A DNA stretch of 64,000 nt from an uncultured virus (IMG/VR IMGVR_UViG_3300029258_001230) (taxonomy: Duplodnaviria > Heunggongvirae > Uroviricota > Caudoviricetes). Both the position numbers and the translations under genes were made by a program. Shown piece by piece: positions 1,309 through 15,515 of this stretch. The first letter of the stretch is position 1, and each line of letters opens with the position of its first letter. The notes beneath the pieces are model-generated. The model was not told where the DNA came from. It was given only the letters and a program-made list of their open reading frames with translations, and made no database searches. Location of the stretch: the IMG/VR virus record IMGVR_UViG_3300029258_001230; one strand, 5' to 3'.

Positions 1309-1420
1309 TAAAGCATTGATAAACAAAGGTTTAAGATTTTTAGACTCGTCTAAAAATAAAGTTAGACTCGTCTTTACATATTTGTTAGACGTATCTAACA
1401 AATTAATTAACACCTTGATT
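1309..1420. promoter_or_regulatory. Three TAGAC-core palindromic sites flanked by two IHF-consensus sites
   Basis: TTTTTAGACTCGTCTAAAAA (1337), TAGACTCGTCT (1363), TTTGTTAGACGTATCTAACAAA (1381); WATCAANNNNTTR on the minus strand at 1309-1321 and 1408-1420. Confidence 0.6.
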
Positions 1421-1500
1421 TGCAATAGTTTACAAGGGTGTTTAATTAAAAATAAAGGACTTAAAATTGTACCAATCGCATTTACATACGAAAAATAAAT

Positions 1501-1734
1501 ATGAAAATCAAGAAAGGAGCAGACTTAATTGACTATATAGAAGAAAAAAGATTAAAACAAAATATTTCTATTGAAAGAATATCAAAAGTTGTCAACATAC
1601 ATAAAACAACTTATTATCGTTTCTTAGATAAGTCATTCGCTGGAAGAAAACTTAAAAACCTAGATGTTTTTTTAGATATTGCAAGGGAATTAGATTTGGA
1701 AATAACAATAAAAAGTGTAAAAGATGAAAATTAA
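1501..1734 (+). CDS. XRE/Cro-family HTH transcriptional regulator
   Basis: EEKRLKQNISIERISKVVNIHKTTYYRF fits the HTH_3 pattern; ends IARELDLEITI. Confidence 0.8.
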   Translation: MKIKKGADLIDYIEEKRLKQNISIERISKVVNIHKTTYYRFLDKSFAGRKLKNLDVFLDIARELDLEITIKSVKDEN

Positions 1735-2029
1735 GTTTAGATTAAGATTAAATGAACATAGTTTTGGAAAATACCAAAAAGGAGACGAAGATGACTTCTA
1801 TATTAATGTATTTGATGAAAGTAATGGTCTTGTTAGATACCCTATACATAGTAGATGGGATATAGTTTCTTTTGAGATAGTAGAAGGAGATGAAGGAGAG
1901 ATGTATTTAAGTAAAAAAGAGGTTATGGATTTTTACCTATGGATGCAGAAGAACGAATACGATCACAATATTCCTTCCAGAGTGGAAAAGAAATTAAATA
2001 AGTATATTAGTGAGGCAAAAACACAGTAA
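1724..2029 (+). CDS. hypothetical protein
   Basis: ORF overlapping the upstream stop, operon context. Confidence 0.7.
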   Translation: MKIKFRLRLNEHSFGKYQKGDEDDFYINVFDESNGLVRYPIHSRWDIVSFEIVEGDEGEMYLSKKEVMDFYLWMQKNEYDHNIPSRVEKKLNKYISEAKTQ

Positions 2030-2031
2030 CC

Positions 2032-2214
2032 ATGGAAGCTTTAACAGTAAAAGAGTTGATTGAGCAATTAGAAAACTTTGATAAAGACAAAGAAGTTCAA
2101 GTTAGTGCAGTTGGTATTTCAGGTAAGGACAGTTGGAATACACCACTTAATTTAGAAGAGCTTACAGTCGATGAGTTTAAAGGAGTAGTTAGAATAAACT
2201 TTAGTCTTTATTAA
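2032..2214 (+). CDS. small phage protein
   Basis: LTVKELIEQLENFDKDKEV N-terminus is common in small phage proteins; stop lies in the TAAC of an attC-like site. Confidence 0.75.
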   Translation: MEALTVKELIEQLENFDKDKEVQVSAVGISGKDSWNTPLNLEELTVDEFKGVVRINFSLY

Positions 2215-2273
2215 CGAGTAGTGTATGTAGTCGGATTTTTCCGATAGGAAAATATGCGACATACATACTGTTA
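2212..2273 (+). repeat. attC-like hairpin
   Basis: TAAC...GTGTATGTAGTCG...CGACATACATAC...GTTA with inner hairpin TTTTCCGATAGGAAAA. Confidence 0.8.
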
Positions 2274-2614
2274 GGTTTAGTTTTTAAATTAAATTAAATT
2301 AAAATAAAATATATGAGAGAATTTACTTGTGCAATGGGTGAAGTTGTTGATTTAGATAATGATAAAACATACAACCATTTACCTAAAACTGCTAAAGAAT
2401 TAGATAAATTAATGTTCGCTGAAATAGGTATGGCATTAGTTTACACTAAATATTTCTATCCCGATTGGGATAAGAAACAATGCTATAGGATACATAAATT
2501 AATAGAAGGTTTTGCTAAAGAAAGAAAAAATAACTACGGCAACGTAAAATGGTTGAGAGAGCAAGTGTTTATTTTTCAAGACGAAACTGAAAATATGTGC
2601 TAATTAAACCTAAC
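2270..2614 (+). mobile_element. Integron-like gene cassette carrying ORF 2313-2603
   Basis: Begins GTTAGGTTTA and ends TAAACCTAAC (10/10 complementary); one ORF inside. Confidence 0.75.
2313..2603 (+). CDS. hypothetical cassette protein
   Basis: 96-aa ORF filling the cassette. Confidence 0.75.
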   Translation: MREFTCAMGEVVDLDNDKTYNHLPKTAKELDKLMFAEIGMALVYTKYFYPDWDKKQCYRIHKLIEGFAKERKNNYGNVKWLREQVFIFQDETENMC

Positions 2615-2690
2615 ACCGTAATAATCATAGTGCGAAGCATTGTGATTATGGAGTGTTAAGGAGCGTTCCGAAGGAAATGCGAACTATTTT
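2611..2690 (+). repeat. Conserved attC-like double-hairpin repeat, copy 2
   Basis: TAACACCGTAATAATC...GATTATGGAGTGTTA plus GCGTTCCGAAGGAAATGCG. Confidence 0.9.
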
Positions 2691-2702
2691 AAGCGAAAAA
2701 AA

Positions 2703-2936
2703 ATGAAAAAAGGAGATAAAATAATATGGGATAGTGGTTTTGGTTATGAGATAGGCTATTTTATCGAGGACTCTGAAAACAAAATGTATAACTCTTTTAA
2801 GGTAGAGTTGATTACAGGAGTAGTTCAAGAAGAAACGCTAATAAGCAAGGATGAGATAATTCCATACACCAAGGAGAGTCAGGAGCAAATGAGTAATAAG
2901 TATGGTTATTCTAAGGCTTTTAGTGAAATATTTTAA
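2703..2936 (+). CDS. hypothetical protein
   Basis: 77-aa ORF. Confidence 0.7.
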   Translation: MKKGDKIIWDSGFGYEIGYFIEDSENKMYNSFKVELITGVVQEETLISKDEIIPYTKESQEQMSNKYGYSKAFSEIF

Positions 2937-2982
2937 ATAATAATTATTTTTTTACTATATTAGAAACACAAACACAAATAAC

Positions 2983-3348
2983 ATGGAAAAATACATTAAA
3001 TCACAACAGAGTATTGAGGTTAAGAAGCATTTTAACAAGAACCAATCGGATAAAGATATTTCTTCAAAGGTATTATCGTTAAGAGTAGATTCTGAAACAG
3101 CTGAAATAGTTGATAAGAATTGTAAAGAAGCAGGGGTTTCTAAGAATAAATATTTGTCTGAATTAGTTACTGATAATAATTTTAAAATTAAAAAAGGTCA
3201 GAGAGTAAGGGTTAGAAATTCAGAAAATTCAGATTATTTAGATAGAGTTTTTGCTTTTTACGATCCAAAAAGAAAGCTGTACGTATGTGAACCGAGTTTA
3301 GAGGGAAGTACATTGTATTACGGTTACGAAGAGTGCTTGTTTGATTAA
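2983..3348 (+). CDS. Ribbon-helix-helix DNA-binding protein with extra C-terminal domain
   Basis: LSLRVDSETAEIVDKNCKEAGVSKNKYLSELV fits the RHH pattern. Confidence 0.65.
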   Translation: MEKYIKSQQSIEVKKHFNKNQSDKDISSKVLSLRVDSETAEIVDKNCKEAGVSKNKYLSELVTDNNFKIKKGQRVRVRNSENSDYLDRVFAFYDPKRKLYVCEPSLEGSTLYYGYEECLFD

Positions 3349-3350
3349 TT

Positions 3351-3776
3351 ATGAACCAGAAAACTCATAAAAAGTGCAAATCTTGTGGTAAAGATTTTCG
3401 GTTGTTTAAGACTACGGACAAGTTCTGTTCGTTTAAATGTGTTCCAGATAAGGAAATTCAAAAAAGAACAATAAACAAGGTGTCGAATAAACAGAAGGAA
3501 TTTGATTCAGAATACGAAAAGAATAGAAAGGCATTAATCAAAGAGATTTTTGATAAAAACGGGAAAATCATTTGTGAAAGATGTTATACTGATAAGTCAA
3601 TAATGTTTTCCACTCATCACATAATGTTTAGAAGTGAATATCCAAGGCATCCAATGTTACATAGCAGGGATAATTTAATTCATTTGTGTTATGATTGCCA
3701 TGAGTATTATCACGATAAGAAGAGTAATAGAGATAGTTTAGTAAAAGAGAGAGGTTTAATTGAAAAGTTCAAGTAA
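3351..3776 (+). CDS. HNH endonuclease (NinG-like) with N-terminal zinc finger
   Basis: CKSC...CSFKC; CERC...STHH...NLIHLCYDCH. Confidence 0.8.
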   Translation: MNQKTHKKCKSCGKDFRLFKTTDKFCSFKCVPDKEIQKRTINKVSNKQKEFDSEYEKNRKALIKEIFDKNGKIICERCYTDKSIMFSTHHIMFRSEYPRHPMLHSRDNLIHLCYDCHEYYHDKKSNRDSLVKERGLIEKFK

Positions 3777-3777
3777 T

Positions 3778-3969
3778 ATGAAATGGATATTTGTAACACT
3801 ACTAATTATACTTTCAATATTATCATCATGTACTAAATGTACTTGCCCTAATAAAGAGAGCAATATTGTTATAGATAAAGGAATAAACTTCTATACAATC
3901 GAAACGGATTCTTTCATTTATATTATAGATAAGGTAACTGGAGAGTTAAGTAACATTTTAAGAAAGTAA
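3778..3969 (+). CDS. putative small lipoprotein
   Basis: MKW + hydrophobic stretch + LSSC lipobox; ATG at 3778 preferred over the track start. Confidence 0.55.
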   Translation: MKWIFVTLLIILSILSSCTKCTCPNKESNIVIDKGINFYTIETDSFIYIIDKVTGELSNILRK

Positions 3970-3970
3970 G

Positions 3971-4150
3971 ATGGTTGATCCAAAGAATAGAAAGTCTGAT
4001 TACGTTTGCATTGATTGTGGAGTTAAGTATTTGCATGAAAGTCAAAAGAGCAAAAAACAGTCTGTAACTTTCTTCATGGATGAATGTGGTATTTGCTCTA
4101 ATTTCAAACCTGTTACACATATAAGAGTGTATAACTATTTAATTAAATAA
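3971..4150 (+). CDS. small zinc-finger protein (not in ORF track)
   Basis: Manual translation MVDPKNRKSDYVCIDC...ECGIC..., 59 aa. Confidence 0.65.
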   Translation: MVDPKNRKSDYVCIDCGVKYLHESQKSKKQSVTFFMDECGICSNFKPVTHIRVYNYLIK

Positions 4151-4158
4151 TAAAAAAA

Positions 4159-4674
4159 ATGAAAAACCAAAAGCATCACATATATTTCAAAGAATGTACT
4201 CAGGAGTTCATTACTCTTCCGATAAATACGCCTAACTGTTATTATCTAGGAGAGTTTACTTTTAAAGAACTAGACAATCTTCATGATCTTGTCGAGTCAA
4301 AACCTATATCTTATAATGATTTATTAAAACACATAAACAATAACTCGGTGTCTCCAGTGATAAGTAAAGTAGACGAAATAAGAAAACAAGCAGAATCCTT
4401 TTACAGAAATAAATACCCAAAAGTGAATGAGTTAAGTTTCTCAGATAATCTTATTATTGATATAATGACAGATTTTATGTACAAACACAAAGTTAAATTT
4501 AATAAAGTTGATTTAGATGATGTTATACCTATAATGGATAAGATAGATAAGTGTATTAGCGATGAATTAGAATATTCAGCAGGTTACACAGAAGAAGAAA
4601 TGGCTAAAATATCTGATGCAGTAGAAAGGATTAAAGATGTTGCAGATGAAAATTGGATGCTTGTCAGGAATTAG
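4159..4674 (+). CDS. hypothetical protein, possibly a fusion across a cassette junction
   Basis: 171-aa ORF; internal GTTATACCT at 4522 pairs with AGGCATAAC at 4673. Confidence 0.65.
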   Translation: MKNQKHHIYFKECTQEFITLPINTPNCYYLGEFTFKELDNLHDLVESKPISYNDLLKHINNNSVSPVISKVDEIRKQAESFYRNKYPKVNELSFSDNLIIDIMTDFMYKHKVKFNKVDLDDVIPIMDKIDKCISDELEYSAGYTEEEMAKISDAVERIKDVADENWMLVRN

Positions 4675-4677
4675 GCA

Positions 4678-4738
4678 TAACGTATGGTAATATGGTTAAG
4701 CGATAGCGACCCGATAGGGTTAACTATATTACGTGTTG
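4678..4738 (+). repeat. attC-like hairpin
   Basis: TAAC...GTAATATGGTTAA...TTAACTATATTAC...GTTG. Confidence 0.8.
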
Positions 4739-4840
4739 TACACTGTATGGCGACTTAACAGAACGAAACTTAAATCGAAGCACAGAAGTAGTATTTATTT
4801 TTTGTGCGGTGGTAAATATTAATTTGAAAAATTAAAACTT

Positions 4841-5461
4841 ATGACAAAATTTAGATTAAAAAAAGAATACCATGAATCAGTTAAAGAACTATTTCACGAT
4901 GACTATGCAAATAAAATAATTAACCTAAAAGAAAGCCAAGAGTTTTTTGTAGATAGAGGATTTCCTTTAGATAAAATTGAGAAGGTTAAAGAGATTACAC
5001 CGATTGAAGAATTGATAAATGTTCTTAGTATCCGATTCAAAGAAGTTGCTAACAATAATGCTATTGATAAAGAATACTGGATTGAAAAAGCAAATAAATT
5101 TAGGTGCGATTCGATTATAGATATACTTAGAGTATTTGTGGATTATGTAAATAAAAAACAACCTTCTTACGGGCATATTCCAGATGAGTGGATAAGAGAT
5201 TTTGCAGTAGAAGATAATGGTGAAATAGTTTATAAAAGTAGTGGCGATGATTATAGTAAAGGGCTAGATGATGGGATAGAGTATGCACGTAGTTTGAATC
5301 CTAAAAAAGCATGGGATATTATATATGATAGCCTACCAAGTTATCAAACAATTCATGAGTTATTAGAAGGAGAAGAATTGACAAGGAAGGAGTTTACATC
5401 TTTTATTGATGGTGCTAAATGGTTTAGAGATTATTTACAAGAACAAATTATAAAGGAGTAG
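4841..5461 (+). CDS. hypothetical cassette protein
   Basis: 206-aa ORF with a FIDGAKW motif typical of small phage proteins. Confidence 0.75.
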   Translation: MTKFRLKKEYHESVKELFHDDYANKIINLKESQEFFVDRGFPLDKIEKVKEITPIEELINVLSIRFKEVANNNAIDKEYWIEKANKFRCDSIIDILRVFVDYVNKKQPSYGHIPDEWIRDFAVEDNGEIVYKSSGDDYSKGLDDGIEYARSLNPKKAWDIIYDSLPSYQTIHELLEGEELTRKEFTSFIDGAKWFRDYLQEQIIKE

Positions 5462-5463
5462 TT

Positions 5464-5751
5464 ATGGAAAATAAAATTAGATGGGTAGCAGAAGCGTATA
5501 ATAAGGATGCTTATCAATGGAATGTAACACCAGAAAGACTATTAAACGAAGAGGTAGAAAGATTGTCTAAAAACTCTTCAATAAAGGAAATTAAACTTGA
5601 AGATGCTACTGATATAGGCGATGACTTAGTAAAAGTTTACAGAGGCTATAACTATAACGGAGAATTGATTTATCAATGGCTCGCTAATAGTGTTAATGTT
5701 GGATATTTTACTAATGAAATGACAAAAGATTATGAACGAAAAGAATTATAA
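5464..5751 (+). CDS. hypothetical cassette protein
   Basis: 95-aa ORF in operon. Confidence 0.7.
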   Translation: MENKIRWVAEAYNKDAYQWNVTPERLLNEEVERLSKNSSIKEIKLEDATDIGDDLVKVYRGYNYNGELIYQWLANSVNVGYFTNEMTKDYERKEL

Positions 5752-6031
5752 AAACTACTTAGACAATATTGTAACTGAATGTTTTAATAATCATTTGAGT
5801 TCTTTAGAATGGGATGAAAATGACCCAATTCAAAAAGCTATGTATTTAAGATTGCATGATGCTTCAAAACAGCTTTTAAGAAAAATGAAAGCAAAAGTAA
5901 TTAATACTTCACATTGCAAAATTGATGCTTATGCTGATGATGATTGGTGTAATAATTATCAAAGTAGAGTTAATTGTGATGGTTGTAATTTCTGTTTAAC
6001 AAGTGGTTGTTCGGAAATTCCGAACTCATAA
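5732..6031 (+). CDS. hypothetical Cys-rich cassette protein
   Basis: C-terminal WC...CDGCNFC...C. Confidence 0.7.
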   Translation: MNEKNYKNYLDNIVTECFNNHLSSLEWDENDPIQKAMYLRLHDASKQLLRKMKAKVINTSHCKIDAYADDDWCNNYQSRVNCDGCNFCLTSGCSEIPNS

Positions 6032-6111
6032 AAAGCGAGGGGAAGAAAAAATAAATACGGTATGATTAGCACCAACTTTGATACGAGAACGGAACTAAGC
6101 CATATTGTGTA

Positions 6112-6203
6112 CAACAGATTACGGCTATGAATTGAAGCCGTATAACAAATGATTGATTCAAAGAAATAACCTTAACAACGGCTTTTATTTATAGCCATTG
6201 TTA
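6112..6203 (+). repeat. attC-like hairpin
   Basis: CAAC...GGCTATGAATTGAAGCCG...CGGCTTTTATTTATAGCC...GTTA. Confidence 0.8.
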
Positions 6204-6385
6204 GCAACTTTTAAAATTATGGATGACGAAATAACAATAAACCTAAGAGCCTTAACTGAGCGACAAAGAAATAACCTTGCAAAGGTATTAGACCAAGCCT
6301 TGAATGATATTGAAGATGAAACCAACGAAGTAGCATTAGAAACCCTACAAAAATTTGTAGAGGAATAATTTTTATTGTTGCTAAC
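6200..6385 (+). mobile_element. Minimal gene cassette carrying a 49-aa ORF
   Basis: GTTAGCAAC...GTTGCTAAC (9/9 complementary). Confidence 0.75.
6219..6368 (+). CDS. small acidic cassette protein (not in ORF track)
   Basis: MDDEITINLRALTERQRNNLAKVLDQALNDIEDETNEVALETLQKFVEE. Confidence 0.65.
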   Translation: MDDEITINLRALTERQRNNLAKVLDQALNDIEDETNEVALETLQKFVEE

Positions 6386-6462
6386 ACCGAAATAACCTCC
6401 GTTTTAATGGAGGGTTATGTGGTGTTATGAGCCGTTGCGATAGCTAATGGCGTTTTCTTTTT
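6382..6462 (+). repeat. Conserved attC-like double-hairpin repeat, copy 3
   Basis: TAACACCGAAATAACCTCC...GGAGGGTTATGTGGTGTTA plus GCCGTTGCGATAGCTAATGGC and T-tract. Confidence 0.9.
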
Positions 6463-6504
6463 AAGAATTAATCACTATATTTAATCACACAAACAAAACA
6501 ATAC

Positions 6505-6657
6505 ATGATTTTAGAAGAAGCAATAAAGATTTTAGATAATCACCAAAAGTGGAGAAGAGGCGAAATAGAAGATTGGGTTTCTACCCCTAAAGAGTTAGGA
6601 GAGGCTATTGATTTGATTCTCACAACCCTCAAAAACAATAACCAACAGGAGGGATAG
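6505..6657 (+). CDS. small phage protein (not in ORF track)
   Basis: MILEEAIKILDNHQKWRRG...PKELGEAID, 50 aa, after a CACAAAC leader. Confidence 0.7.
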   Translation: MILEEAIKILDNHQKWRRGEIEDWVSTPKELGEAIDLILTTLKNNNQQEG

Positions 6658-6658
6658 C

Positions 6659-7309
6659 ATGAAAGAACTACTAAGAAGTATATATCTTTACAATAAAACC
6701 TACTATAAGGTTTGGGTTCATATTTGGGTGTTCTCAGATTCAAAAAACGTATTTGATTTTACTTATTCGGAACTATCTTCCGTTTTGGGTATTCCAGAAA
6801 CAACAATAAGAAGAGCTATTGATAAGATATTCAGAGCATGGAATGATGATGGCAGAACTTTAGTAGAATTTGAAAAATCAGAAAACGGATCAAATCAAAT
6901 TAAATTATATCCAAAAGGAAAGCCTAAGTCTAAGTTTTATGAAATTCACGATGAAATGTTCGATTGGGTTAAAGTTTGGTATAAAAAGAATGATTATGAC
7001 TATTTAGAAATCGGGAGACATAAAAAGTATATTCGATTAATATCAGACAAGATTAAGAAGTCAATGATTGAAAGAACAAATCAAGAGCCAAACGATGAGG
7101 GTGTATTGAATAGCTTTCAACTGTTTTTTGAGAACATTCCCGATTGGTGGATTAATCAAGGTCAGGCTACTTTGAATAAAGTAAATAAGAATTACGATAC
7201 TATATTGAATCAAATAAAATCTAAAAATGGAAAAAAACGAGATAGCTACCAAAAGTCAAGTGAGCAAGTTGGAGAAGTCGATTTTACCAAGCTTACCGAG
7301 AACGACTAA
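6659..7309 (+). CDS. putative replication initiator (N-terminal HTH)
   Basis: FTYSELSSVLGIPETTIRRAI HTH; overlaps the downstream gene as in O/P-like pairs. Confidence 0.55.
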   Translation: MKELLRSIYLYNKTYYKVWVHIWVFSDSKNVFDFTYSELSSVLGIPETTIRRAIDKIFRAWNDDGRTLVEFEKSENGSNQIKLYPKGKPKSKFYEIHDEMFDWVKVWYKKNDYDYLEIGRHKKYIRLISDKIKKSMIERTNQEPNDEGVLNSFQLFFENIPDWWINQGQATLNKVNKNYDTILNQIKSKNGKKRDSYQKSSEQVGEVDFTKLTEND

Positions 7310-8036
7310 TAAGATAATCGAAACTCACAGAACGCATAAAAAAGTAAAGGACTTTTCCGAATCTGATTTTGCAGGTCTTTACAAAAGTCTTTTGGCTATA
7401 TGTAAATTGGTTGGGATAAAGGACGCTCCAGACAATTCTGTAATGCTTCTTCTTTTAGAACACATTAAAGTTCATCATATAGATTTTTCAACAAAGGAAA
7501 TTGAAATAGCTTTTAGTATGGCTTCGGCAGGTAAGTTGGATTTTGACTTCGAGCCTTACAACAAGATGACTCCTCAATTAATATCCAAAACTTTAAACTC
7601 ATATAAAGAAAAAAGGAATAAAAGCCTAGTTGAAGTATCAAGACAAATAGATAAAGCCAATCGGGAGAAAGTAAACAGTTCCGTTAAAACTAATGACTCA
7701 ATGGCTATTGATTATATTGTTTCCGTTTATGAAAAGTATAAAAAAGAACAAGAAAAATCAGAGCCAGACCATGCCGTTTACAGAGATTGGGGAAATAAGA
7801 TTTACCATTTTTTAGACATGAAGGGCATTGTATCGTTCTCGAAAGATAAAAAGAAAGACGCTATGGAACGTGCAAAAGCAATCGTTTCTAAAGAGCAGTT
7901 TGAATCAGATGTTAGGTATAGCTTTGAGAAATCAGATAATAAAACAGTTGTAGAAGCAAAGAACTTATTAGTTCAGGAGTGGTTTAAGAACGCTTGCGAA
8001 ATGGATGTTAACATTCGGGAGTTGATAAAGTTGTAG
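7227..8036 (+). CDS. putative replication accessory or helicase-loader-like protein
   Basis: Follows the initiator; EIEIAFSMASAGKLD segment resembles Bacteroidota phage replication proteins. Confidence 0.45.
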   Translation: MEKNEIATKSQVSKLEKSILPSLPRTTNKIIETHRTHKKVKDFSESDFAGLYKSLLAICKLVGIKDAPDNSVMLLLLEHIKVHHIDFSTKEIEIAFSMASAGKLDFDFEPYNKMTPQLISKTLNSYKEKRNKSLVEVSRQIDKANREKVNSSVKTNDSMAIDYIVSVYEKYKKEQEKSEPDHAVYRDWGNKIYHFLDMKGIVSFSKDKKKDAMERAKAIVSKEQFESDVRYSFEKSDNKTVVEAKNLLVQEWFKNACEMDVNIRELIKL

Positions 8037-8099
8037 TATTTTTTTTGCGAAAACGCAACGATATTACTATATTTACACAATAATAAAACACACAAACAC

Positions 8100-8312
8100 A
8101 TGATTAATTTAAGTATTGAAGACTCTTTAAGCGAGTTAAAGCAAATCAACATTGAGATTGATAAACTAAACACAGAAATCAATGCAAAAGGTCTTGATTC
8201 TCCAGAGCAAAAAGTTAATGCGAAGCATGATATTTTAAGATTGGGTAGCCTTTTAAAAGATAAAGAGTTTTTGAACTATTGTTTAACCTATTTACTTACA
8301 AACAATGGATGA
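8100..8312 (+). CDS. hypothetical protein
   Basis: 70-aa ORF directly after CACAAACAC. Confidence 0.65.
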   Translation: MINLSIEDSLSELKQINIEIDKLNTEINAKGLDSPEQKVNAKHDILRLGSLLKDKEFLNYCLTYLLTNNG

Positions 8313-8433
8313 AGAAGAATTAGTGTCAGAAATGATCGTTGAATTAGCTGGTGAGTATTTGGAAGTAGATAGTAGTCAGCTAAAATACTTAAAGAAAGAA
8401 ATAAAGACTGAGTTAGTCGATAGCGATAGTTAA
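8305..8433 (+). CDS. small acidic protein (not in ORF track)
   Basis: MDEEELVSEM...DSDS, 42 aa; stop is the TAA of TAAC at 8431. Confidence 0.55.
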   Translation: MDEEELVSEMIVELAGEYLEVDSSQLKYLKKEIKTELVDSDS

Positions 8434-8476
8434 CGATAAAGCTAACGGCTTTTTTAATTGCCGTTAGGATGTGTTA
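8431..8476 (+). repeat. short attC-like hairpin
   Basis: TAAC...CTAACGGC...GCCGTTAG...GTTA. Confidence 0.75.
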
Positions 8477-9251
8477 GCCACAGTTTTATTAAAAAAAATA
8501 AAAAATAGAATTATGAAATATATGGGAAGTAAAAATAGGTTTGCAAAAGAATTGCTACCTATAATTTTAAAAGACAGAAAACCTAATCAATGGTATGTTG
8601 AGCCATTTGCAGGAGGTATGAATATTATTGATAAAGTAAATGGTAATAGAATTGCAAATGACAATAACAAGTATTTAATAGCCTTATGGAAAGGAATACA
8701 GACTAATGAAAGCAGACCAACCGAAATAAGCAAAGAATTTTATAGTGATGTAAGAGATTGTTTTAATGGTAAAAACTCTAAATATAATGACTTCACAATA
8801 GGTTGGGTTGGTTTTATGGGTAGTGCAAACGGACGTTTCTTTGAGGGTGGTTATAGCGGAAAGTCAAATACCAAAAACGGAATAGTAAGAGATTATATTG
8901 CAGAAAGTATTCGCAATATAGAAAAGCAAATACCAAACTTAAAAGATATTGATTTTAGATGTAATGATTATAGAGAATTAGAAATACCTAAAAACAGTAT
9001 TATATATTGTGATATACCTTATGAGGGAACTAAACAATACTCGACAAGTAAAGGCTTTAATCATAAGCATTTTTGGGATTGGGTAAGAAGTACTACACTT
9101 AAAGGACATAAAGTGTTTGTAAGCGAATACAAAGCACCGAATGACTTTGAATGTGTTTGGGAAAAACAAGCAAAAAGTAGTTTAAGTGCCAACGGTAAAA
9201 TTGGAGGTAATAAAGTAAGCACAGAGAAACTGTTTGTTTATTGTGGCTAAC
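8473..9251 (+). mobile_element. Gene cassette carrying a Dam-like methyltransferase
   Basis: GTTAGCCAC...GTGGCTAAC (9/9); gene stop lies inside the terminal TAAC. Confidence 0.75.
8513..9250 (+). CDS. D12-class (Dam-like) N6-adenine DNA methyltransferase
   Basis: MKYMGSK, YVEPFAGG (motif I), YCDIPY (DPPY-like motif IV); likely start is ATG at 8513. Confidence 0.9.
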   Translation: MKYMGSKNRFAKELLPIILKDRKPNQWYVEPFAGGMNIIDKVNGNRIANDNNKYLIALWKGIQTNESRPTEISKEFYSDVRDCFNGKNSKYNDFTIGWVGFMGSANGRFFEGGYSGKSNTKNGIVRDYIAESIRNIEKQIPNLKDIDFRCNDYRELEIPKNSIIYCDIPYEGTKQYSTSKGFNHKHFWDWVRSTTLKGHKVFVSEYKAPNDFECVWEKQAKSSLSANGKIGGNKVSTEKLFVYCG

Positions 9252-9328
9252 ACCGAAATAACCATCGTTCGCAGAATGATGAGTTATGGAGTGTTAAAGA
9301 GCGTTCCGAAGGAAATGCGAACTATTTT
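9248..9328 (+). repeat. Conserved attC-like double-hairpin repeat, copy 4
   Basis: TAACACCGAAATAACCATC...GATGAGTTATGGAGTGTTA plus GCGTTCCGAAGGAAATGCG. Confidence 0.9.
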
Positions 9329-9352
9329 AGAAATTTTAAAATTAAATATAAA

Positions 9353-9892
9353 ATGAACTGGAAAGATTATAAACAAGAAGCAAAAAGAACATGGGCTAAC
9401 TTTAGCGAGATCCATAAGATTGAAAACGGAGATTTAGACAGAAGAATGGCTTTACTTCACTGCGTATTAGGTATTGAAACTGAGATTAACGAGTACAAAA
9501 AAGCTATCATCAATAATGATGAAGTAAATGCAAAAGAAGAGATTGGTGATGCGTATTGGTATTTGGCTAATTACGAATTGAGGTTTGATATACCTATAAT
9601 GAGTAAGTCCGACCTCAAAGGAGGAAGTTTGGATGATTGTGTAGAAACTGTTTTAGATTTGAGTAAAAAAGTTGTTTTCTATAAAAGTGATAAGTTTTGG
9701 GGAGAAGTTGATTTATGTATGGGGTCTATTCTTTATTATTTAGAAGATGTTGTTATGTCCAGAAGATATGATAAAGCAAGTATTTTACAAACTAACATAA
9801 ATAAACTAAAGTCTAGGTTTCCGAATAAATTCACTACTAAAGATGCTGATGAAAGAGATTTAGACAATGAAAGAAAAATACTAGAGCAATGA
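9353..9892 (+). CDS. MazG-like nucleotide pyrophosphohydrolase
   Basis: YKQEAKRT, LGIETEINE, KEEIGDAYWY, NINKLKSRFPNKF. Confidence 0.85.
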   Translation: MNWKDYKQEAKRTWANFSEIHKIENGDLDRRMALLHCVLGIETEINEYKKAIINNDEVNAKEEIGDAYWYLANYELRFDIPIMSKSDLKGGSLDDCVETVLDLSKKVVFYKSDKFWGEVDLCMGSILYYLEDVVMSRRYDKASILQTNINKLKSRFPNKFTTKDADERDLDNERKILEQ

Positions 9893-10725
9893 GATTAATT
9901 TCACAAAGTTTAATCAAGTCATTGAACAAATACATTAATGGTAAGCAATGCGGTTTAAAATTAAAAGCTCAATACGTAGATGGTATTGAGTTTGAACCGT
10001 CTGACGCTATGCGTTTAGGTCAATGGTTTGAATATAAGTGTACGGGTCAGAAAACTAAATTCGGTCATACTCCAGTTCCCGACAGATTAAAACCCAAAAA
10101 GCTAACAAAAGCACAAAAAGAAGCAGGGTTGAAACAAGAAGATATAGTTGGAGAGCTATCAAAGAAGTATCAAGATGCTTTAATTCAGGTGGAAGCTTTC
10201 CATAAAATGCTTAAAGCAGAAAAACTAACTATCATATCCACGGGTACTAGATTGAAGGATGATGAGTTCGGAATAAGTGGAGATGTAGATATTGTAGCTC
10301 AGAGAGAGGGAGACGATAAGCTAATCTTTATTGATACAAAGTATTCAGGATTACTTGAAAATAAATATGATGATTTAGGATGGCACTATGACTCTTTAGA
10401 GTATAAGCATGATATAATGATCCAATCAGTACAATATAAGTTATTAGGTATTCAGAACTATGGTTATGAGCCTGATTTTTACTTCTGGGTATTTTCAAGC
10501 ACAAATCCAAATGCCAGAAAGAGCATAAAAGTAGAGGTCAGCGAGGATCGTTTTAAGACACATATCAAAGATGTTTTTCAAGCAAGAAAGATATTTGAAC
10601 AAAATTTAAAACACGGATTCAAACCGTACCCATCACCAGACGGATGTGCTTCATGTCCTTTGAAGGAGACTTGCGAACATTTTACAGAAGTGCCAATAGT
10701 TCACACAGTGTATTATGGAAATTAA
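9889..10725 (+). CDS. PD-(D/E)XK Cas4/RecB-like exonuclease
   Basis: ISGDVDIV...FIDTK, QSVQY, C-terminal CASCPLKETC. Confidence 0.8.
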   Translation: MRLISQSLIKSLNKYINGKQCGLKLKAQYVDGIEFEPSDAMRLGQWFEYKCTGQKTKFGHTPVPDRLKPKKLTKAQKEAGLKQEDIVGELSKKYQDALIQVEAFHKMLKAEKLTIISTGTRLKDDEFGISGDVDIVAQREGDDKLIFIDTKYSGLLENKYDDLGWHYDSLEYKHDIMIQSVQYKLLGIQNYGYEPDFYFWVFSSTNPNARKSIKVEVSEDRFKTHIKDVFQARKIFEQNLKHGFKPYPSPDGCASCPLKETCEHFTEVPIVHTVYYGN

Positions 10726-10740
10726 AAACACACAAACACA

Positions 10741-11424
10741 ATGAGAGATTTAAAAAAAATCAAAGAAGAAATAAAAGATATGGCTACTATGGATTTAGAT
10801 ACGGCTATGTCTTGTTTTTACGTCCTTATGGATAACGGCAAACCTTACACGGGAATATCTGTCAGGTTCTCTGAATTAGTTGCTTATTGTTGGGGAGGGT
10901 TGGAAATTGGAACTCGGATTATAAGTAATGACGGTAAAAATATAGTTGTTGGGGCTGAATTATTGGATAAGGAAAAGGATTCAAAGTATAGCTTGGAGCT
11001 TACTCGATCGGTGGTTGGAATAAATGGTAGACCAATTTCAGGAGAAAAACTAGTTAATATAAGCACAACGCTTAGTTCTATTGCTTACAGGAATATCGTT
11101 TTTAAAGCGATACCCTCAATGGTTCTAAAGAAAGTAACCGAAGAGATTCAGGAGTTTATCAAGGACAATATTTCAGATTCAACAGCAATGAAAGATTGTA
11201 TCGACTTCTTTGTTTCCAAAAACGTTTCTAAAAACAAGATTGCTTCAAAGTTAGGGTTAGACTCATTAAGTGATATTGATAGTGAAAAAGCTTTTAGACT
11301 TATCGGGATGAAAAACGCAGTCGAAAGTAATGATACTACCGTTCACGAGTTATTTGGAAAGGATAAAGGTGTTTTTGAAACAGATGACAGTTTAGAAATT
11401 CCAGAGTTTAATTACAAAAAATGA
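10741..11424 (+). CDS. putative single-strand annealing/recombination protein
   Basis: Adjacent to the exonuclease; GISVRFSE resembles the GPSIRLAE motif of phage recombination proteins. Confidence 0.5.
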   Translation: MRDLKKIKEEIKDMATMDLDTAMSCFYVLMDNGKPYTGISVRFSELVAYCWGGLEIGTRIISNDGKNIVVGAELLDKEKDSKYSLELTRSVVGINGRPISGEKLVNISTTLSSIAYRNIVFKAIPSMVLKKVTEEIQEFIKDNISDSTAMKDCIDFFVSKNVSKNKIASKLGLDSLSDIDSEKAFRLIGMKNAVESNDTTVHELFGKDKGVFETDDSLEIPEFNYKK

Positions 11425-11523
11425 TATAAACATCACCTTGTTAGCAAATTAGAATGAGTAGAAGTTGTTTTTTAGCTTCTACTTTTCTATTTTTAGAGGA
11501 CACAAACACAAAAAAGTAAAATT

Positions 11524-11859
11524 ATGAGCAAGTATTACAACACTACAAATGCCTACGGAGATTTATTGAAAGACTACGAAGCAAGAGCAATTAGTCAAGA
11601 CGAAGTGGTTATAGGGGTTTTTAGAATCTACAAAAAACCATTATCCCCATCAATGATTTTAGAGTTATCGGGAATGAATTGTCCTCTGACCTCGGTTAGA
11701 AGAAGTATGACTAATCTAACAAGAGAAGGAAAGTTGGAAAAGACAGACACTAAGGTTAATGGTATTTATGATAGACCAGAATATCTATGGAAACTTCTAA
11801 AGAAAAAGGTTGCTAAAAATAAAGGAAAAGAAATTCAAGGGAAATTAGATTTAAACTAG
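11524..11859 (+). CDS. winged-HTH DNA-binding protein
   Basis: LTSVRRSMTNLTREGKLEKT...YLWK. Confidence 0.65.
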   Translation: MSKYYNTTNAYGDLLKDYEARAISQDEVVIGVFRIYKKPLSPSMILELSGMNCPLTSVRRSMTNLTREGKLEKTDTKVNGIYDRPEYLWKLLKKKVAKNKGKEIQGKLDLN

Positions 11860-11863
11860 ACTT

Positions 11864-12082
11864 ATGCGTTTAAGTGATGAACAACTGAATTACCCTAGTA
11901 ACACAGGTTTTGTTTGTTGTGTGGTATTAGAGAAAATGGACTTGGGGTGGATGGAACTTGAGGATGGGTCTAAATGTATGCCTTACATTAAGGGTAGTTC
12001 GGATAGTGATATGTATCGAGTAAATAACTGCCCTTCTTGTGGTAAGTATGTACGTGATGCAGTAATTAAATTACAAAGATAA
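11864..12082 (+). CDS. small zinc-ribbon protein
   Basis: CC...NNCPSCG. Confidence 0.6.
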   Translation: MRLSDEQLNYPSNTGFVCCVVLEKMDLGWMELEDGSKCMPYIKGSSDSDMYRVNNCPSCGKYVRDAVIKLQR

Positions 12083-12103
12083 ATCGAAAAATCATTAAAT
12101 AAA

Positions 12104-12412
12104 ATGGAACAAGAAAAGATTAGATATAGTGACGTAATGGATTTAGGCTTTAAAGAAGAAATCGGCAATGATAGTACCTACTTTAAAAAATACGGTTTTG
12201 ATTACGCTATTATAACAAAGTACTTAACTAAGAAGATTTACCTTGACTGGGCTAAAGAAACGCAACTTTGTGAAATGGTAAGGATTGATAGCCCTAAAAA
12301 CTGCAATATAAAAGCCAAATTGCCAATACGGAACTTGGAGCATTTAAAAGAGGTAGTCAACTTCTTTTCTGATGAAGAGGTAAATGAAGTTGATTATACA
12401 AAGTTTGCTTAA
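12104..12412 (+). CDS. hypothetical protein
   Basis: 102-aa ORF. Confidence 0.7.
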   Translation: MEQEKIRYSDVMDLGFKEEIGNDSTYFKKYGFDYAIITKYLTKKIYLDWAKETQLCEMVRIDSPKNCNIKAKLPIRNLEHLKEVVNFFSDEEVNEVDYTKFA

Positions 12413-12456
12413 TAAAGGTAAAGCATAAGCGTAGTATAGATAGTAAAAATGAAAAT

Positions 12457-12774
12457 ATGCCAAAAATATTTGAGTATCTAGGAATAATCATTAGGTTTTA
12501 TTCCAATGAGCATGATCCTATTCATGTTCACGCCATTTATCAAGATGCAGAAGTCAAAATTTCTTTCTTTTTTAAAGAAGGTCGTCTTTACAGAACCACT
12601 TACAAAGTTGAAAAAGGGAAATTCCCCCCTGCAAAAATGAAAGCACTTAAAAAGTTCGTTTCTATTTACAATTTGAAAATTGTTCACAGATGGAACGAGT
12701 ATTTTATTTTTAAAGTAAGTCCAAAATTTGAAAAAATCACCAAAAAGTTGAGCAATGAAGATAGATACAATTAA
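12457..12774 (+). CDS. DUF4160-family protein (putative toxin)
   Basis: MPKIFEYLGIIIRFYSNEHDPIHVHA...WNEYF. Confidence 0.8.
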   Translation: MPKIFEYLGIIIRFYSNEHDPIHVHAIYQDAEVKISFFFKEGRLYRTTYKVEKGKFPPAKMKALKKFVSIYNLKIVHRWNEYFIFKVSPKFEKITKKLSNEDRYN

Positions 12775-13003
12775 ACACCTAAAAGACCATCAGTTAGAAT
12801 TAGGTTTTAGCGATGGAACGTCAAAGGTTATTGATCTAGGTAACTTCATAAAATCGAGTAACCATCCATTGATAAAGAAGTATGCTGATATTGAACTATT
12901 CAAGCAAGTATATTTAGATGAAACAGGCACTCCTTGTTGGGGGAACAATGAATTTGACATTAGTCCAAAAAGTATAATTAAAGGCGATTTTGATATTACT
13001 TAA
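12755..13003 (+). CDS. DUF2442-family protein (putative antitoxin)
   Basis: LELGFSDGTSKVIDL...FKQVYLDETGTPCWGNNEFDISP; overlaps the DUF4160 gene. Confidence 0.8.
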   Translation: MKIDTIKHLKDHQLELGFSDGTSKVIDLGNFIKSSNHPLIKKYADIELFKQVYLDETGTPCWGNNEFDISPKSIIKGDFDIT

Positions 13004-13126
13004 CGGATTATAATAAATACAGTAGCGATATGGAAGATGAAATAAAACAGATTTGCACAGAATTAAATGATGGACAAATAGCGGTTGTACAAGCAACAGA
13101 AAAGCTATTGGATTTATTTAATGTTA
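13001..13126 (+). repeat. attC-like hairpin with a long coding loop
   Basis: TAAC...AATAAATACAGTAGC...GCTATTGGATTTATT...GTTA. Confidence 0.7.
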
Positions 13127-13206
13127 GTAATTCAAAATGTAAATGGATGAAGATTAACGGAGTTTACAAAAAGGAATGTAAAATAAAATACACTGAAAAA
13201 GAATAA
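13030..13206 (+). CDS. small protein starting inside the attC-like loop (not in ORF track)
   Basis: MEDEIKQICTEL...KLLDLFNVSNSKC...EKE, 58 aa. Confidence 0.55.
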   Translation: MEDEIKQICTELNDGQIAVVQATEKLLDLFNVSNSKCKWMKINGVYKKECKIKYTEKE

Positions 13207-13213
13207 TTATTAC

Positions 13214-13272
13214 TAAAGGACGAGTATATGCGAAGTGCTGACGATAGGAAGCATTGCGTATATACATTGTTG
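13214..13272 (+). repeat. attC-like hairpin with degenerate left core (TAAA)
   Basis: GTATATGCGAAGTGCT...AGCATTGCGTATATAC...GTTG. Confidence 0.7.
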
Positions 13273-14213
13273 TACACTGTATGGCGACTTATTAGCACTA
13301 ACCTTCAATCAAAGCACTAAACAGAAAAACAAAAAGAAAAAAGCGATGGCAAAAATAAATTTAGACAAGTATTACACATCAAAAGAACTTGCAAAGCATT
13401 GTATTGATGTAGTAAATAAATTGGGATTAGAAATAACTGAAACCATTGAGCCAAGTGCAGGAAATGGAAGTTTTAGTTTACAGATACCGAATTGTATTGC
13501 GTATGATTTGGAACCTGAACACGAAAGTATTATTAAACAAGACTTTCTAAAACTTGAATTGCCTTATAAAAGTGGAAGGTTGTTTATTGGAAACCCCCCA
13601 TTTGGAACAAGGAATACATTAAGTGTACGATTTTACAAACAAGCAATTAGAATGGGTGATTATATTGCTTTTATACTACCTGTAAGCCAATATAAAAACA
13701 ACCAACAAATGTATGAGTTTGACTTAATTCATTCGGAAGTATTGCCACTGATTGAATATAGTGGAATTAAACTATTGTGTTGCTTTAATGTATATAAAAG
13801 ACCTGAGAATGGAGTGAATACAAAAGCAATAGATTATAAGCTAAAAGATGTATTTGTTGGCGAATATAGAAGAGGTGGAACTTATAAAAAACCTGAAACT
13901 TTTGATTTTGCTATGAACACCTATGGGGCAAGTATTGGGAAAGAAGTTCTTGAAATAGGGACATTTTGCCAAGAAAATTATGTGATTATTAAAAATGAAA
14001 TGCACCGAGAAAGGATTTTAGAAGTGATGAGAAAAACTGACTGGAAGAATTTATATCCGTTTATTTCTAAACCTAAAATACAGACTTGGAAGATTTATAA
14101 GTATTTAAAAGAACAAATACCTGAATTGAAATAAAGAATTGCGGTGGCTTTTTTTGTTTTTCCTTCACATAACTTTCAAACGAAGAACGAACCTAAGCCA
14201 TATTGTGTACAAC
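13269..14213 (+). mobile_element. Gene cassette carrying an N6-adenine methyltransferase; same ends as 4735-6115
   Basis: GTTGTACACTGTATGGCGACTTA...CTAAGCCATATTGTGTACAAC. Confidence 0.8.
13346..14134 (+). CDS. N6-adenine DNA methyltransferase
   Basis: DKYYTS, IEPSAGNGSF, IGNPPFG; likely start is ATG at 13346. Confidence 0.85.
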   Translation: MAKINLDKYYTSKELAKHCIDVVNKLGLEITETIEPSAGNGSFSLQIPNCIAYDLEPEHESIIKQDFLKLELPYKSGRLFIGNPPFGTRNTLSVRFYKQAIRMGDYIAFILPVSQYKNNQQMYEFDLIHSEVLPLIEYSGIKLLCCFNVYKRPENGVNTKAIDYKLKDVFVGEYRRGGTYKKPETFDFAMNTYGASIGKEVLEIGTFCQENYVIIKNEMHRERILEVMRKTDWKNLYPFISKPKIQTWKIYKYLKEQIPELK

Positions 14214-14294
14214 ACCGTTATAACCTCCGTGCGAAGTCATGGAGGGTTATGTGGTGTTATGAGCCGTTGCGTAGCTAATGGCGTTTTCTTTTTT
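14210..14294 (+). repeat. Conserved attC-like double-hairpin repeat, copy 5
   Basis: CAACACCGTTATAACCTCC...GGAGGGTTATGTGGTGTTA plus GCCGTTGCGTAGCTAATGGC and T-tract. Confidence 0.9.
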
Positions 14295-14310
14295 AAAATA
14301 CATATAGTTA

Positions 14311-14348
14311 AAAAGCCCCAATTACGAGCGTAAGAGGGGCTTTTCTTT
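14311..14348. terminator. probable bidirectional intrinsic terminator
   Basis: AAAAGCCCC...GGGGCTTTTCTTT between convergent transcription units. Confidence 0.6.
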
Positions 14349-14402
14349 GATCTTTCGATCCACACAAACACAATACGAAGAACTCGCATCGCTTCAAATA
14401 TA

Positions 14403-14963
14403 CTAAATTACTGTAAAATAACCTTTCTCTGGAATAGTGATGTTATCAACAATGAACCTGATTTGTTTAAGGTTGAAGTTATCCACTTCAACTGCTCCTT
14501 CTCCGAATGTTTGTCTAGCTTCTTGAATTAAAGCATCTTTAGTCCATCTACGTCCTAAAGCTTTCTTTCTAAAAGTGTCAATTGTATCGAAGTCAATTTT
14601 AGATTCTGATTGATCGGATTTACCTTCTCCTGTAAGGATATTAAGTCTATCGTACACGATTTTAGGAACTTCAAGATGGCTTCCACTATCTTCTACGAAA
14701 TCAACTTTAGATAAGTCGTTTGTTACGTAGTAAATGTGAAGAGGGTTCTTTCTTTCTCTTCCTGACTTTGTTTTAGTAATTACTTTTTCAGCTCTAACGG
14801 CTACTGATTGAGTCATTCCCTCAATTAAAGTATAAAGCTTAACTCCTCCAATTTCTTTTTCTAATTGGTTGATTACTTTTTTAATTGTAGCTGGTTTGTC
14901 ATTTTCATTGACTTTGATTAAAGGATACTTTTCAAGTTCCTTTTCCCATTCTGCATTTGGCAT
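14403..14963 (-). CDS. hypothetical protein, paralog of the C-terminal domain of 15516-17969
   Basis: KYPLI...TKSG...YY...VPKIVYDRLNI shared with 15516-17969. Confidence 0.75.
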   Translation of the reverse strand: MPNAEWEKELEKYPLIKVNENDKPATIKKVINQLEKEIGGVKLYTLIEGMTQSVAVRAEKVITKTKSGRERKNPLHIYYVTNDLSKVDFVEDSGSHLEVPKIVYDRLNILTGEGKSDQSESKIDFDTIDTFRKKALGRRWTKDALIQEARQTFGEGAVEVDNFNLKQIRFIVDNITIPEKGYFTVI

Positions 14964-15012
14964 AATTATATTGTTTATGATTAATAATGGTGCTAATTTA
15001 CAAAAAACAAAG

Positions 15013-15020
15013 TATTTTTG
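15013..15020 (+). promoter_or_regulatory. Bacteroidota -7 promoter element TAnnTTTG
   Basis: TATTTTTG about 30 nt upstream of ATG 15050; similar elements at 20328, 30570, 46192, 46932, 50767, 59294. Confidence 0.6.
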
Positions 15021-15049
15021 TATTGTAAAAGGTAATATATTAGGTGGTT

Positions 15050-15505: not shown

Positions 15506-15515
15506 AAACAAAATT

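Follow-up and report, generated by a model that had tools for sequence, protein, structure and literature searches.

Integron-like gene cassettes bounded by a family of hairpin sites in an uncultured tailed-phage genome

Integrons stock and reshuffle single genes in bacteria by means of an IntI integrase, an attI site and promoterless cassettes bounded by attC sites. To our knowledge, they were thought before 2023 to be confined to bacteria. Here we analyze a stretch of 64,000 nt (the window) from an uncultured virus of the Caudoviricetes (IMG/VR record IMGVR_UViG_3300029258_001230), in which positions 2212 to 14294 hold cassettes with matched inverted ends separated by attC-like hairpins. The closest described arrangement is that of Qi et al. 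(2023, Front Microbiol 14:1091391, PMC9892861), who reported clusters of attC sites without an integrase (CALINs) in virulent phages. According to the Figure 2 legend and Table S3 of that paper, the program HattCI called as attC a site in phage P12002L that belongs to the family described below; according to its section 3.4, P12002L_attC1 gave no recombinants with the integrase IntI1. P12002L_attC1 is a hairpin of exactly the window family, and the only member of it put to that assay. The exchange of accessory genes by the window phage seems to resemble that of bacterial integrons, although it would use another enzyme, one absent from the window.

An initial annotation of this DNA had listed six pairs of inverted unit ends, and we found all six at the coordinates given. 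They are TGTTAGGTTTA at 2269 with TAAACCTAACA at 2605 (cassette A), TGTTGTACAC at 4734 with GTGTACAACA at 6107 (cassette 4), TGTTAGCAAC at 6199 with GTTGCTAACA at 6377 (cassette 5), GTTAGCCACA at 8473 with TGTGGCTAAC at 9242 (cassette C), GTTGTACAC at 13269 with GTGTACAAC at 14205 (cassette 9), and an imperfect pair, GTTAGTAAT at 13123 with ATTACTAAA at 13209, which matches at 8 of 9 positions and ends in TAAA rather than TAAC. Inverted pairs of 9-mers are common by chance (1194 within 3 kb of each other in the window), so we tested position instead of mere pairing. The base rate at which a 9-mer has its reverse complement 60 to 3000 nt upstream is 2.5 to 2.8% of window positions (1512 of 60,900 positions; 32 of 1153 for 9-mers ending in AAC). 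At the intergenic elements that start with AACACCG, the 9 bases ending at AAC have a matched partner in 4 of 7 cases, 186 to 945 nt upstream, and each of the four partners sits just 3' of another hairpin. Elsewhere, a perfect 9-mer partner was present at 21 of the 34 unique sites in other contigs with enough upstream sequence, compared with 161 of 5835 control AAC positions in the same loci (2.8 to 3.1%; binomial about 1e-24). The first bases of a cassette are thus complementary to its other end in five units of the window and at those 21 sites. We conclude that the matched-end observation holds and reaches well beyond the window phage. Frames of the cassette 4 type keep complementary but different 6-mers, GTACAC/GTGTAC in the window and ACCAAC/GTTGGT in locus L073, and in the same frame around gene product 38 (gp38) of P12002L the ends are nearly complementary. 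Since one frame carries different yet complementary 6-mers, end pairing appears to be selected.

The AACACCG element, which we call the docking element, is about 85 nt long; it starts with (T/C)AACACCG and contains two hairpins, hp1 followed by the smaller hp2. The window has seven intergenic copies, and by the hp1 pattern the element also occurs in 13 viral and 96 metagenome stretches. Among 41 distinct copies, the stem is kept by changes on both sides at 7 of its 16 pairs (for pair 15-44, in 24 of the 41), in keeping with the earlier claim that hairpins separate the units. All 41 hairpins are framed by (T/C)AAC and GTT(A/G), where the search pattern had fixed AAC and GTT and left the adjoining T/C and A/G free, and the 3x3 internal loop is present. 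Of the attC consensus RYYYAAC/GTTRRRY, the family keeps only the YAAC/GTTR part. Hairpin tips of the form C-GNA-G or C-GNNA-G, which are associated with stable DNA mini-hairpins, occur in 17 of the 41 copies, with tetraloops of a non-GNRA type. One copy, however, ends in a CTTCGG tip, so the tips give only a weak hint of folding as DNA over RNA. Generic hairpin scanners either missed known sites or came near their shuffled controls (14 versus 11; 80 versus 39 to 67), and were left out of the evidence.

Near-identical sequences that differ by one unit allowed us to set the limits of a cassette, because they break directly 3' of AAC (hereafter, the AAC boundary). Locus L008 is empty, reading AATCATAAC directly before hp1, and locus L006 is occupied, with flanks 99.8 to 99.97% identical. 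The L006 insert has 287 nt, is bounded on both sides by CATAAC with the break after the final C, and holds in order a hairpin arm, a loop with the start of an 80-codon open reading frame (ORF), the other arm, GTTATGCG, the rest of the ORF and CGCATAAC. Its two junctions have CATAACAC in common, and in a circle its ends would pair as a perfect 21-bp stem. Loci L068 and L073 have different hairpin-plus-gene units, of 391 and 811 nt, between common flanks: on the right, hp1 and downstream sequence agree over 1362 nt in all at 99.2%; on the left, the flank ending in CGCATAAC at the AAC boundary agrees over only 50 nt at 94%. The cultured phages P12002L and P12002S, which have one Polaribacter host, are 99.6 to 99.7% identical in their backbones and differ by inserts of about 1.08 kb and about 0.9 kb and by one replacement, all bounded by AAC. 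Over all pairs of family loci, homology ends recurrently at TAAC, the 5' foot of the hairpin; every indel seen has (T)AAC before both of its boundaries on the coding strand, and the inserted DNA invariably lies 3' of (T)AAC. The expectation of the initial annotation that homologues break at unit boundaries is borne out by these indels and replacements, which break at the AAC core. A further cassette, in L088, has end frames 93 to 95% identical to those of cassette 4 around other cargo in another context, and the homology between the two stops at the inverted ends.

Judged from these comparisons, a cassette consists of a hairpin, GTTAxxxx, one or more genes and xxxxTAAC; the upstream hairpin belongs to it, and the downstream AACACCG element stays with the backbone as the docking site. 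The initial annotation was right to place matched ends beside attC-like hairpins, but the AAC boundaries make the mobile hairpin the upstream one, not the downstream one. Its proposal that the virus acquires and shuffles genes at several dispersed mini-arrays agrees with the empty, occupied and replaced sites, with the restriction that shuffling was seen only in relatives.

Could the hairpins instead be RNA-level signals, such as terminators or processing and stabilizing stems, with gene swapping a by-product of homologous or illegitimate recombination during co-infection? The elements do lie between co-oriented genes, the hp2 of two of them scores as terminator-like, and copies in one genome are 92 to 100% alike, which favors homologous exchange. 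Shuffling mediated by promoter/stem-loop (PeSL) cassettes has moreover been published for T4-type phages (PMC2839356 and PMC4122927, as far as these sources were available). However, the breakpoints fall at one core of 3 to 4 nt even where the hairpins are nearly unlike, the L006 hairpin and hp1 having only CATAACAC in common, and RNA signals offer no role for covarying, cassette-specific complementary ends, especially across 0.3 to 1.4 kb. The tips described above count weakly against this alternative as well, as does the lack of an excess of sigma-70-type promoters (66 versus 69.7 expected, in a scan that does not cover Bacteroidota promoters). Finally, arrays elsewhere are tied in position and strand to a recombinase gene, as detailed below. 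We consider an origin in RNA signals unlikely.

A second alternative starts from the boundaries themselves. If the units were non-autonomous single-strand transposons of the IS200/IS605 type (palindrome-associated elements), a Y1 HUH transposase acting in trans would cut one strand after TAAC at both ends, find its cut sites through pairing with bases beside the hairpin foot, and paste the circle 3' of another TAAC. Both indel boundaries do follow AAC on one strand, units always insert 3' of (T)AAC, and a Y1 transposase gene lies within the array region of genome G080. The right end of a unit also pairs with bases beside the left hairpin, which resembles recognition by guide sequences, the means by which IS608 recognizes its cut sites. 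Yet the Y1_Tnp family of Pfam is absent from the 102 ORFs of the window and the 21 ORFs of its extension, each unit has one hairpin and not a subterminal hairpin at each end, and insertion takes place at the feet of other family hairpins, as site-by-site recombination would predict. The gene consistently linked to arrays encodes a tyrosine recombinase, not an HUH enzyme. Transposition of this kind is therefore quite improbable in our judgment.

Where, then, is the tyrosine recombinase that site-specific movement would require? As the initial annotation had stated, the window has none among its 102 ORFs by Pfam or PHROGs, and PF00589 had no hit in three viral records carrying the element. In viral contigs, 197 stretches encode relatives of a short tyrosine recombinase, and we examined the best 80 for hairpins. 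Strict family hairpins were found in 34 of these best 80 loci, and all 63 such hairpins lie on the strand of the recombinase, 154 to 5730 nt upstream of its start; with reversed sequence as the control, 2 hits were obtained. An array can comprise as many as five near-identical sites; cassette ends match in such arrays, and a primary site adjoins the recombinase. The recombinase-adjacent site is followed by GTTATACACA, whose complement TGTGTATAAC lies upstream of the array in L243, the placement predicted by insertion at the AAC boundary of the primary site. Arrays L243, L244 and L275, which are linked to the recombinase, agree with the window in hairpin build and in the rule for cassette ends. 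HNH endonucleases and NinG, considered as a common enzyme, had no consistent presence in related loci.

Chromosomes were sampled from the family of a Lutibacter metagenome-assembled genome (MAG), taken to be Flavobacteriaceae. The strict cassette-type hairpin pattern occurs in 111 of 401 sampled genomes; it is not specific on its own, since the reversed control also matches many genomes, but the matches include many perfect family hairpins, some of them clustered. In genomes G248 and G080, a gene for a tyrosine recombinase of 301 to 305 amino acids lies 0.5 to 3 kb from family hairpins, amid restriction and defense genes, and on the G111 chromosome an orthologue is placed likewise. The G248 and G080 enzymes are 72% identical to each other and score best, with 211 to 213 bits, against the XerA/integron-integrase model (cut-off 220) and 208 to 210 against IntI (cut-off 265). 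We conclude that the link between hairpin arrays and the recombinase is much stronger in viral contigs than in chromosomes. The window phage itself carries orphan arrays, with no recombinase directly downstream; P12002L and P12002S have no such recombinase either.

These data also bear on whether the sites are ordinary integron attC sites of the CALIN type, picked up from a classical host integron and serviced by its IntI. The YAAC/GTTR ends, the 7-5-7 style of build and the HattCI call in P12002L (PMC9892861) would fit, but the lack of recombinants of P12002L_attC1 with IntI1 in the same report does not. TIGR02249 found nothing over its cut-off in 301 genomes sampled from the Lutibacter MAG family. 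Among 185,579 species genomes, the docking-type pattern had 34 hits against about 27 by our own rough chance estimate, and none of the 34 has the build of the hairpin family. The hairpin travels 5' of the gene with AAC boundaries, not 3' of it with breaks at G/TT. Finally, the phage recombinases, of 266 to 268 amino acids, fall below all curated cut-offs, and the linked recombinases as a whole (266 to 305 amino acids) score 157 to 210 bits against the IntI cut-off of 265, with each match split into two stretches. In the accessible part of Smyshlyaev et al. (2021), the IntI insertion is described as not conserved throughout the integron-like recombinase subgroup. We conclude that classical IntI is unlikely as the enzyme, and that servicing by a host integron is a highly improbable account of the sites. 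Of the suggestion in the initial annotation that a host IntI-like enzyme or an unfamiliar recombinase does the work, the lack of an integrase in the phage stands, and the classical IntI does not fit.

Several observations on chromosomal loci stand apart from this argument. In L158/L159 (G080:C1:793000-832000), a unit with an IS91-type Y2 transposase (237 amino acids) is present three times and is adjoined by truncated copies of the short recombinase (162 and 202 amino acids); cassettes there include an Alw26I-type restriction enzyme with a C5 methylase, and a GmrSD nuclease. Many Flavobacteriaceae genomes (for example G119, G182, G215 and G026) have a second, dispersed class of hairpins, TAAC..GATATGAAATCGTTTTAATGTTTTATATC..GTTA, as single copies, often followed by AACGAAGTTA; by its appearance, the class is a relative of the cassette hairpins akin to repetitive extragenic palindromes (REP). 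Another hairpin type, CAAC..TATA..GCATAGC.ACCC.GCGGGATG.CTACGAC.., occurs at L161 14286-14347 and L197 17251-17313, about 7 kb from a short recombinase gene in two different genomes.

Our preferred reading is the following. One family of hairpin sites, built as (T/C)AAC, a short unpaired spacer, a variable stem-loop, a second spacer and GTT(A/G), would split the early region of the phage into modules. Recombination between two AAC feet would release a cassette as a circle, in which the joined ends, xxxxTAAC and GTTAxxxx, would lengthen the hairpin stem. The circle would then enter at the AAC foot of a docking hairpin. The substrate would be a folded single strand, as for attC, and the enzyme a short tyrosine recombinase similar to Xer and IntI. 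Because the window phage does not encode such an enzyme, it would have to come in trans from the host or from a co-infecting phage. We think it somewhat more probable than its opposite that the hairpin-site cassettes move by site-specific recombination with a short tyrosine recombinase acting in trans.

A number of results weigh against this reading. The window and its extension of about 10 kb (102 and 21 ORFs) encode no recombinase of any kind, and a tblastn search of 744 kb of related phage loci, P12002L and P12002S included, returned no match to the chromosomal recombinase; action in trans is therefore purely a matter of inference. By the strict pattern, 46 of the best 80 viral recombinase loci have no hairpin, and only 3 of 9 chromosomal loci with close orthologues have a clear family hairpin within 3 kb. 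A perfect partner is lacking at 13 of the 34 sites in other contigs, and some cassettes have unmatched ends, for example that of the P12002S gp38/P12002L gp36 methyltransferase; unmatched ends are to be expected if deletions between any two sites fuse neighbors. Between cassette 4 and the L088 cassette, the frames are conserved while both flanking hairpins differ, so crossing-over at AAC alone does not explain every mosaic. The terminator-like hp2 of 2 of the 7 docking elements (6382 and 14210) means that part of the conservation may serve transcription. For the window phage itself, four public runs contained no circle, empty site or junction; these were available as contigs, which break at repeats and give no verdict on circles or empty sites. 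The contig joints listed there (205>481, 6112>6383, 9337>14211 and 600>14294) are explained by paralogous copies of the element elsewhere in the genome, and loose contig ends at 6119, 6207, 8505 and 13213 are variant neighbors whose origin cannot be told.

Four docking elements hold five cassettes between 2212 and 14294, and a sixth cassette begins at the window end; all of these features are on the + strand. Co-orientation had been claimed at the outset, and every gene from 1 to 14300 is indeed on that strand. Stop codons fall in the TAAC at 2212, 8431, 9248 and 63854 but not at the other boundaries, so that the earlier "often" was an overstatement.

Cassette A (2216-2614) follows a TAAC (2212-2215) that contains the stop codon of ORF 2032-2214. 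It opens with a hairpin at 2216-2268 that has a CGATAGG loop and arms resembling those of the L006 insert, continues with GTTAGGTTTA at 2270 and an ORF of 96 amino acids at 2313-2603 for which we found no family, and closes with TAAACCTAAC at 2605-2614, so that its inverted ends are perfect over 10 to 11 nt. The docking element behind it (2611-2692) consists of hp1 at 2611-2658 (TAACACCG..GGAGTGTTA), the second small hairpin and a T-rich tail.

Cassette 4 (4682-6115) has a hairpin at 4682-4734, followed by GTTGTACAC at 4735. Its two frames, the left one reaching to 4844 and the right one at 6031-6115 ending in GTGTACAAC, are both conserved, and its cargo is three ORFs without a family (4841-5461, 5464-5751 and 5732-6031). 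Cassette 5 (6116-6385) has two small hairpins at 6116-6199, then GTTAGCAAC at 6200, an ORF of 49 amino acids (6219-6368) and GTTGCTAAC at 6377-6385. The docking element there (6382-6462) has hp1 at 6382-6427 and the terminator-like hp2 at 6431-6451, followed by a T run, and shares 92 to 100% identity with those at 14211 and 58920. The inside of ORF 4841-5461 is connected with the left end of cassette 5 by a perfect 14-nt inverted repeat (5043-5056 and 6197-6210), both arms of which include GTTGCTAAC/GTTAGCAAC; this repeat may be a chance match or the trace of an older junction.

In cassette C (8435-9251), a TAAC at 8431-8434 containing the stop codon of ORF 8305-8433 is followed by a hairpin (8435-8472), GTTAGCCACA at 8473, a predicted Dam-like N6-adenine methyltransferase gene at 8513-9250 (MethyltransfD12, 4.9e-15; phrog_56) and the end TGTGGCTAAC at 9242-9251. 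The methyltransferase is 43% identical in amino acids to the product of the P12002L gp54 cassette gene. The docking element at 9248-9329 has hp1 at 9248-9296 and then hp2. Further on, a short unit (13123-13217), GTTAGTAAT...ATTACTAAA, lies within and just past ORF 13030-13206; its match is imperfect and its status as a cassette unit uncertain, and similar end units of 94 to 157 nt close the cassettes of L006, L013, L030, L092 and L095.

Cassette 9 (13218-14213) has a hairpin with a CGATAGG loop (13218-13268), GTTGTACAC at 13269 and the end GTGTACAAC at 14205-14213, and its frames are of one family with those of cassette 4. The cargo (13346-14134) is a putative N6-adenine methyltransferase of family D12 (phrog_799, 8e-12), in whose sequence an NPPF motif can be read; it is 70.7% identical in nucleotides to the L088 cargo. 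Its docking element (14210-14294) has hp1 at 14210-14258 and a terminator-like hp2 at 14263-14282, followed by a T run. The other three docking elements have no partner of the matched kind: one at 481-567, outside 2212-14294, has no matched partner upstream, one at 58919-58999 has no perfect partner upstream, and one at 61512-61598 has no partner upstream. The sixth cassette starts at 63858-64000 with a long-loop hairpin after a TAAC at 63854-63857, followed by GTTACAGGCA at 63976. Its cargo lies beyond the window on contig Ga0180432_10000889 and is a predicted C5 cytosine methyltransferase (DNA_methylase, 9.7e-36), with the end TGCCTGTAAC; in L022 the unit has 928 nt. The known cargo thus comprises three DNA methyltransferases, one of them past the window end, which probably guard against host restriction.

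The window has a G+C content of 33% and nearly all of its genes on the + strand. By its gene content it looks like a phage: Pfam and PHROGs assigned a holin, an endolysin, polyvalent-protein domains, MazG, a PD-(D/E)XK exonuclease and several methyltransferases, and the majority of ORFs had no family. No match was found in the phage collection for 2000-15000 (megablast), for the 628-amino-acid ORF (tblastn) or for one docking element (blastn), none of the viral contigs yielded relatives of the PD-(D/E)XK nuclease, Rfam gave no family over the whole window at E <= 1, and ARAGORN found no tRNA in it. The same phage is present in two metagenome contigs, one 100% identical over 3249-20258 and the other 99.99% identical over 52920-64000 and extending about 10 kb further. 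Two clues concern the host: for the left frame of cassette 4, the only matches are in the Polaribacter phages P12002L and P12002S, and the genomes sampled from the Lutibacter MAG family commonly contain family hairpins. The end frames common to cassettes 4 and 9 are also those of the P12002L gp38 cassette. Only two proteins are common to the window and P12002L (BLASTP, 1e-4), one of them a cassette methyltransferase. From this sequence evidence, cassettes appear to have spread between the two without a common backbone, as part of an explanation that, taken whole, we hold to be moderately probable.

Other features of the window may interest workers on this phage group. The G-rich repeats of the GTGGAGG type at 1-205, together with the sequence up to the first start codon, recur inverted at 96% identity in L084, the far end of contig Ga0180432_10000889, where another gene unit comes next and then a copy of the docking element. 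The genome may thus be linear, about 74 kb long, with this sequence as its terminal inverted repeat. The motif CACAAACA has 12 copies on the + strand and none on the - strand (for example at 173, 2967, 6488, 8091, 10731, 11501, 59330 and 62738), most of them 5 to 25 nt ahead of a start codon, and is probably a leader or promoter-proximal motif of early genes. The ORF of 846 amino acids at 24036-26576 contains a 146-nt direct repeat, 90% identical, at 24306-24451 and 25113-25258, and several repeats of the GCTAAAGGTGGAGA type at 25536-26330; its product would be a large, internally repetitive protein without a family. A run of modification-type genes at 54834-57736 encodes an S-adenosylmethionine (SAM) methyltransferase, two glycosyltransferase-like proteins, a sulfotransferase and another methyltransferase.

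How does this arrangement compare with known systems? Like the window family, PeSL cassettes (Arbiol et al. 2010, PMC2839356; Comeau et al. 2014, PMC4122927) have intergenic stem-loops that flank variable small genes and mark differences in hyperplastic regions. In the available parts of these papers, they are said to use homologous exchange between composite promoter-terminator motifs, whereas the window family has fixed core breakpoints of 3 to 4 nt, complementary unit ends and a recombinase linked to it elsewhere. The IS200/IS605 elements and the Xer-dependent elements (CTX phage and pdif modules) likewise move by means of hairpins, maybe without an enzyme of their own. The former also insert beside a short fixed motif with both cuts on one strand, and the latter use Xer-type recombinases on folded or paired sites. 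The window units differ from IS200/IS605 in having one hairpin each and no Y1 transposase, and from the Xer elements in that we recognized no 28-bp dif-like site.

The phage CALINs of Qi et al. (2023) are, in the portions of that paper at hand, phage-borne, without an integrase and associated with methyltransferase cargo, as here. They describe only two P12002L sites, with "divergent directions", whereas we find at least five matched or AAC-bounded cassettes in P12002L; those portions contain no empty and occupied sites, no docking element and no recombinase linked to the hairpin family. We found no published description of the site family as such, the docking element, the 5' hairpin, the empty and occupied sites or the recombinase link, in a search that left bioRxiv supplements and subscription journals outside. 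Phage CALINs, including one site of the family, were already known.

Integrons offer a further parallel. In both systems, imperfect hairpins with YAAC/GTTR termini contain an unpaired spacer, the hairpin is completed in the circle by the cassette ends, and most cassettes have a single gene; in relatives, arrays of near-identical sites stand beside a tyrosine recombinase. The differences are that here the hairpin travels 5' of the gene and the breakpoints follow AAC on the coding strand, in place of G/TT 3' of the gene, so that the cassette layout reads as the integron arrangement on the opposite, non-coding strand. In addition, arrays that accompany a recombinase lie upstream of its gene and run in its direction, and the enzyme, of 266 to 305 amino acids, falls below the IntI cut-off; in the window, the sites are dispersed over several docking elements in a phage with no recombinase. 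More tentatively, and with slightly less than even confidence, we propose that these features amount to a "mirror integron": a second, independently organized capture system of marine Flavobacteriia and their phages, with its own recombinase lacking the IntI insertion, arrays upstream in the same direction, leading hairpins and crossovers at AAC, in which lytic phages without a recombinase, such as the window phage, would retain several docking sites and exchange methyltransferase and other cassettes in trans during co-infection. A direct test is feasible, since the sites are present in two cultured phages, P12002L and P12002S, and in their Polaribacter host. If true, the mirror integron would be a common market for restriction-evasion and defense genes among unrelated phages and hosts, would account mechanistically for the "hyperplastic" early regions seen in phage genomes, and would offer a compact pair of hairpin and recombinase that could be tested as a gene-insertion tool. 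As a system parallel to the integron in a major marine phage group, it would also explain why the same methyltransferase genes occur in unrelated lytic phages at different places.

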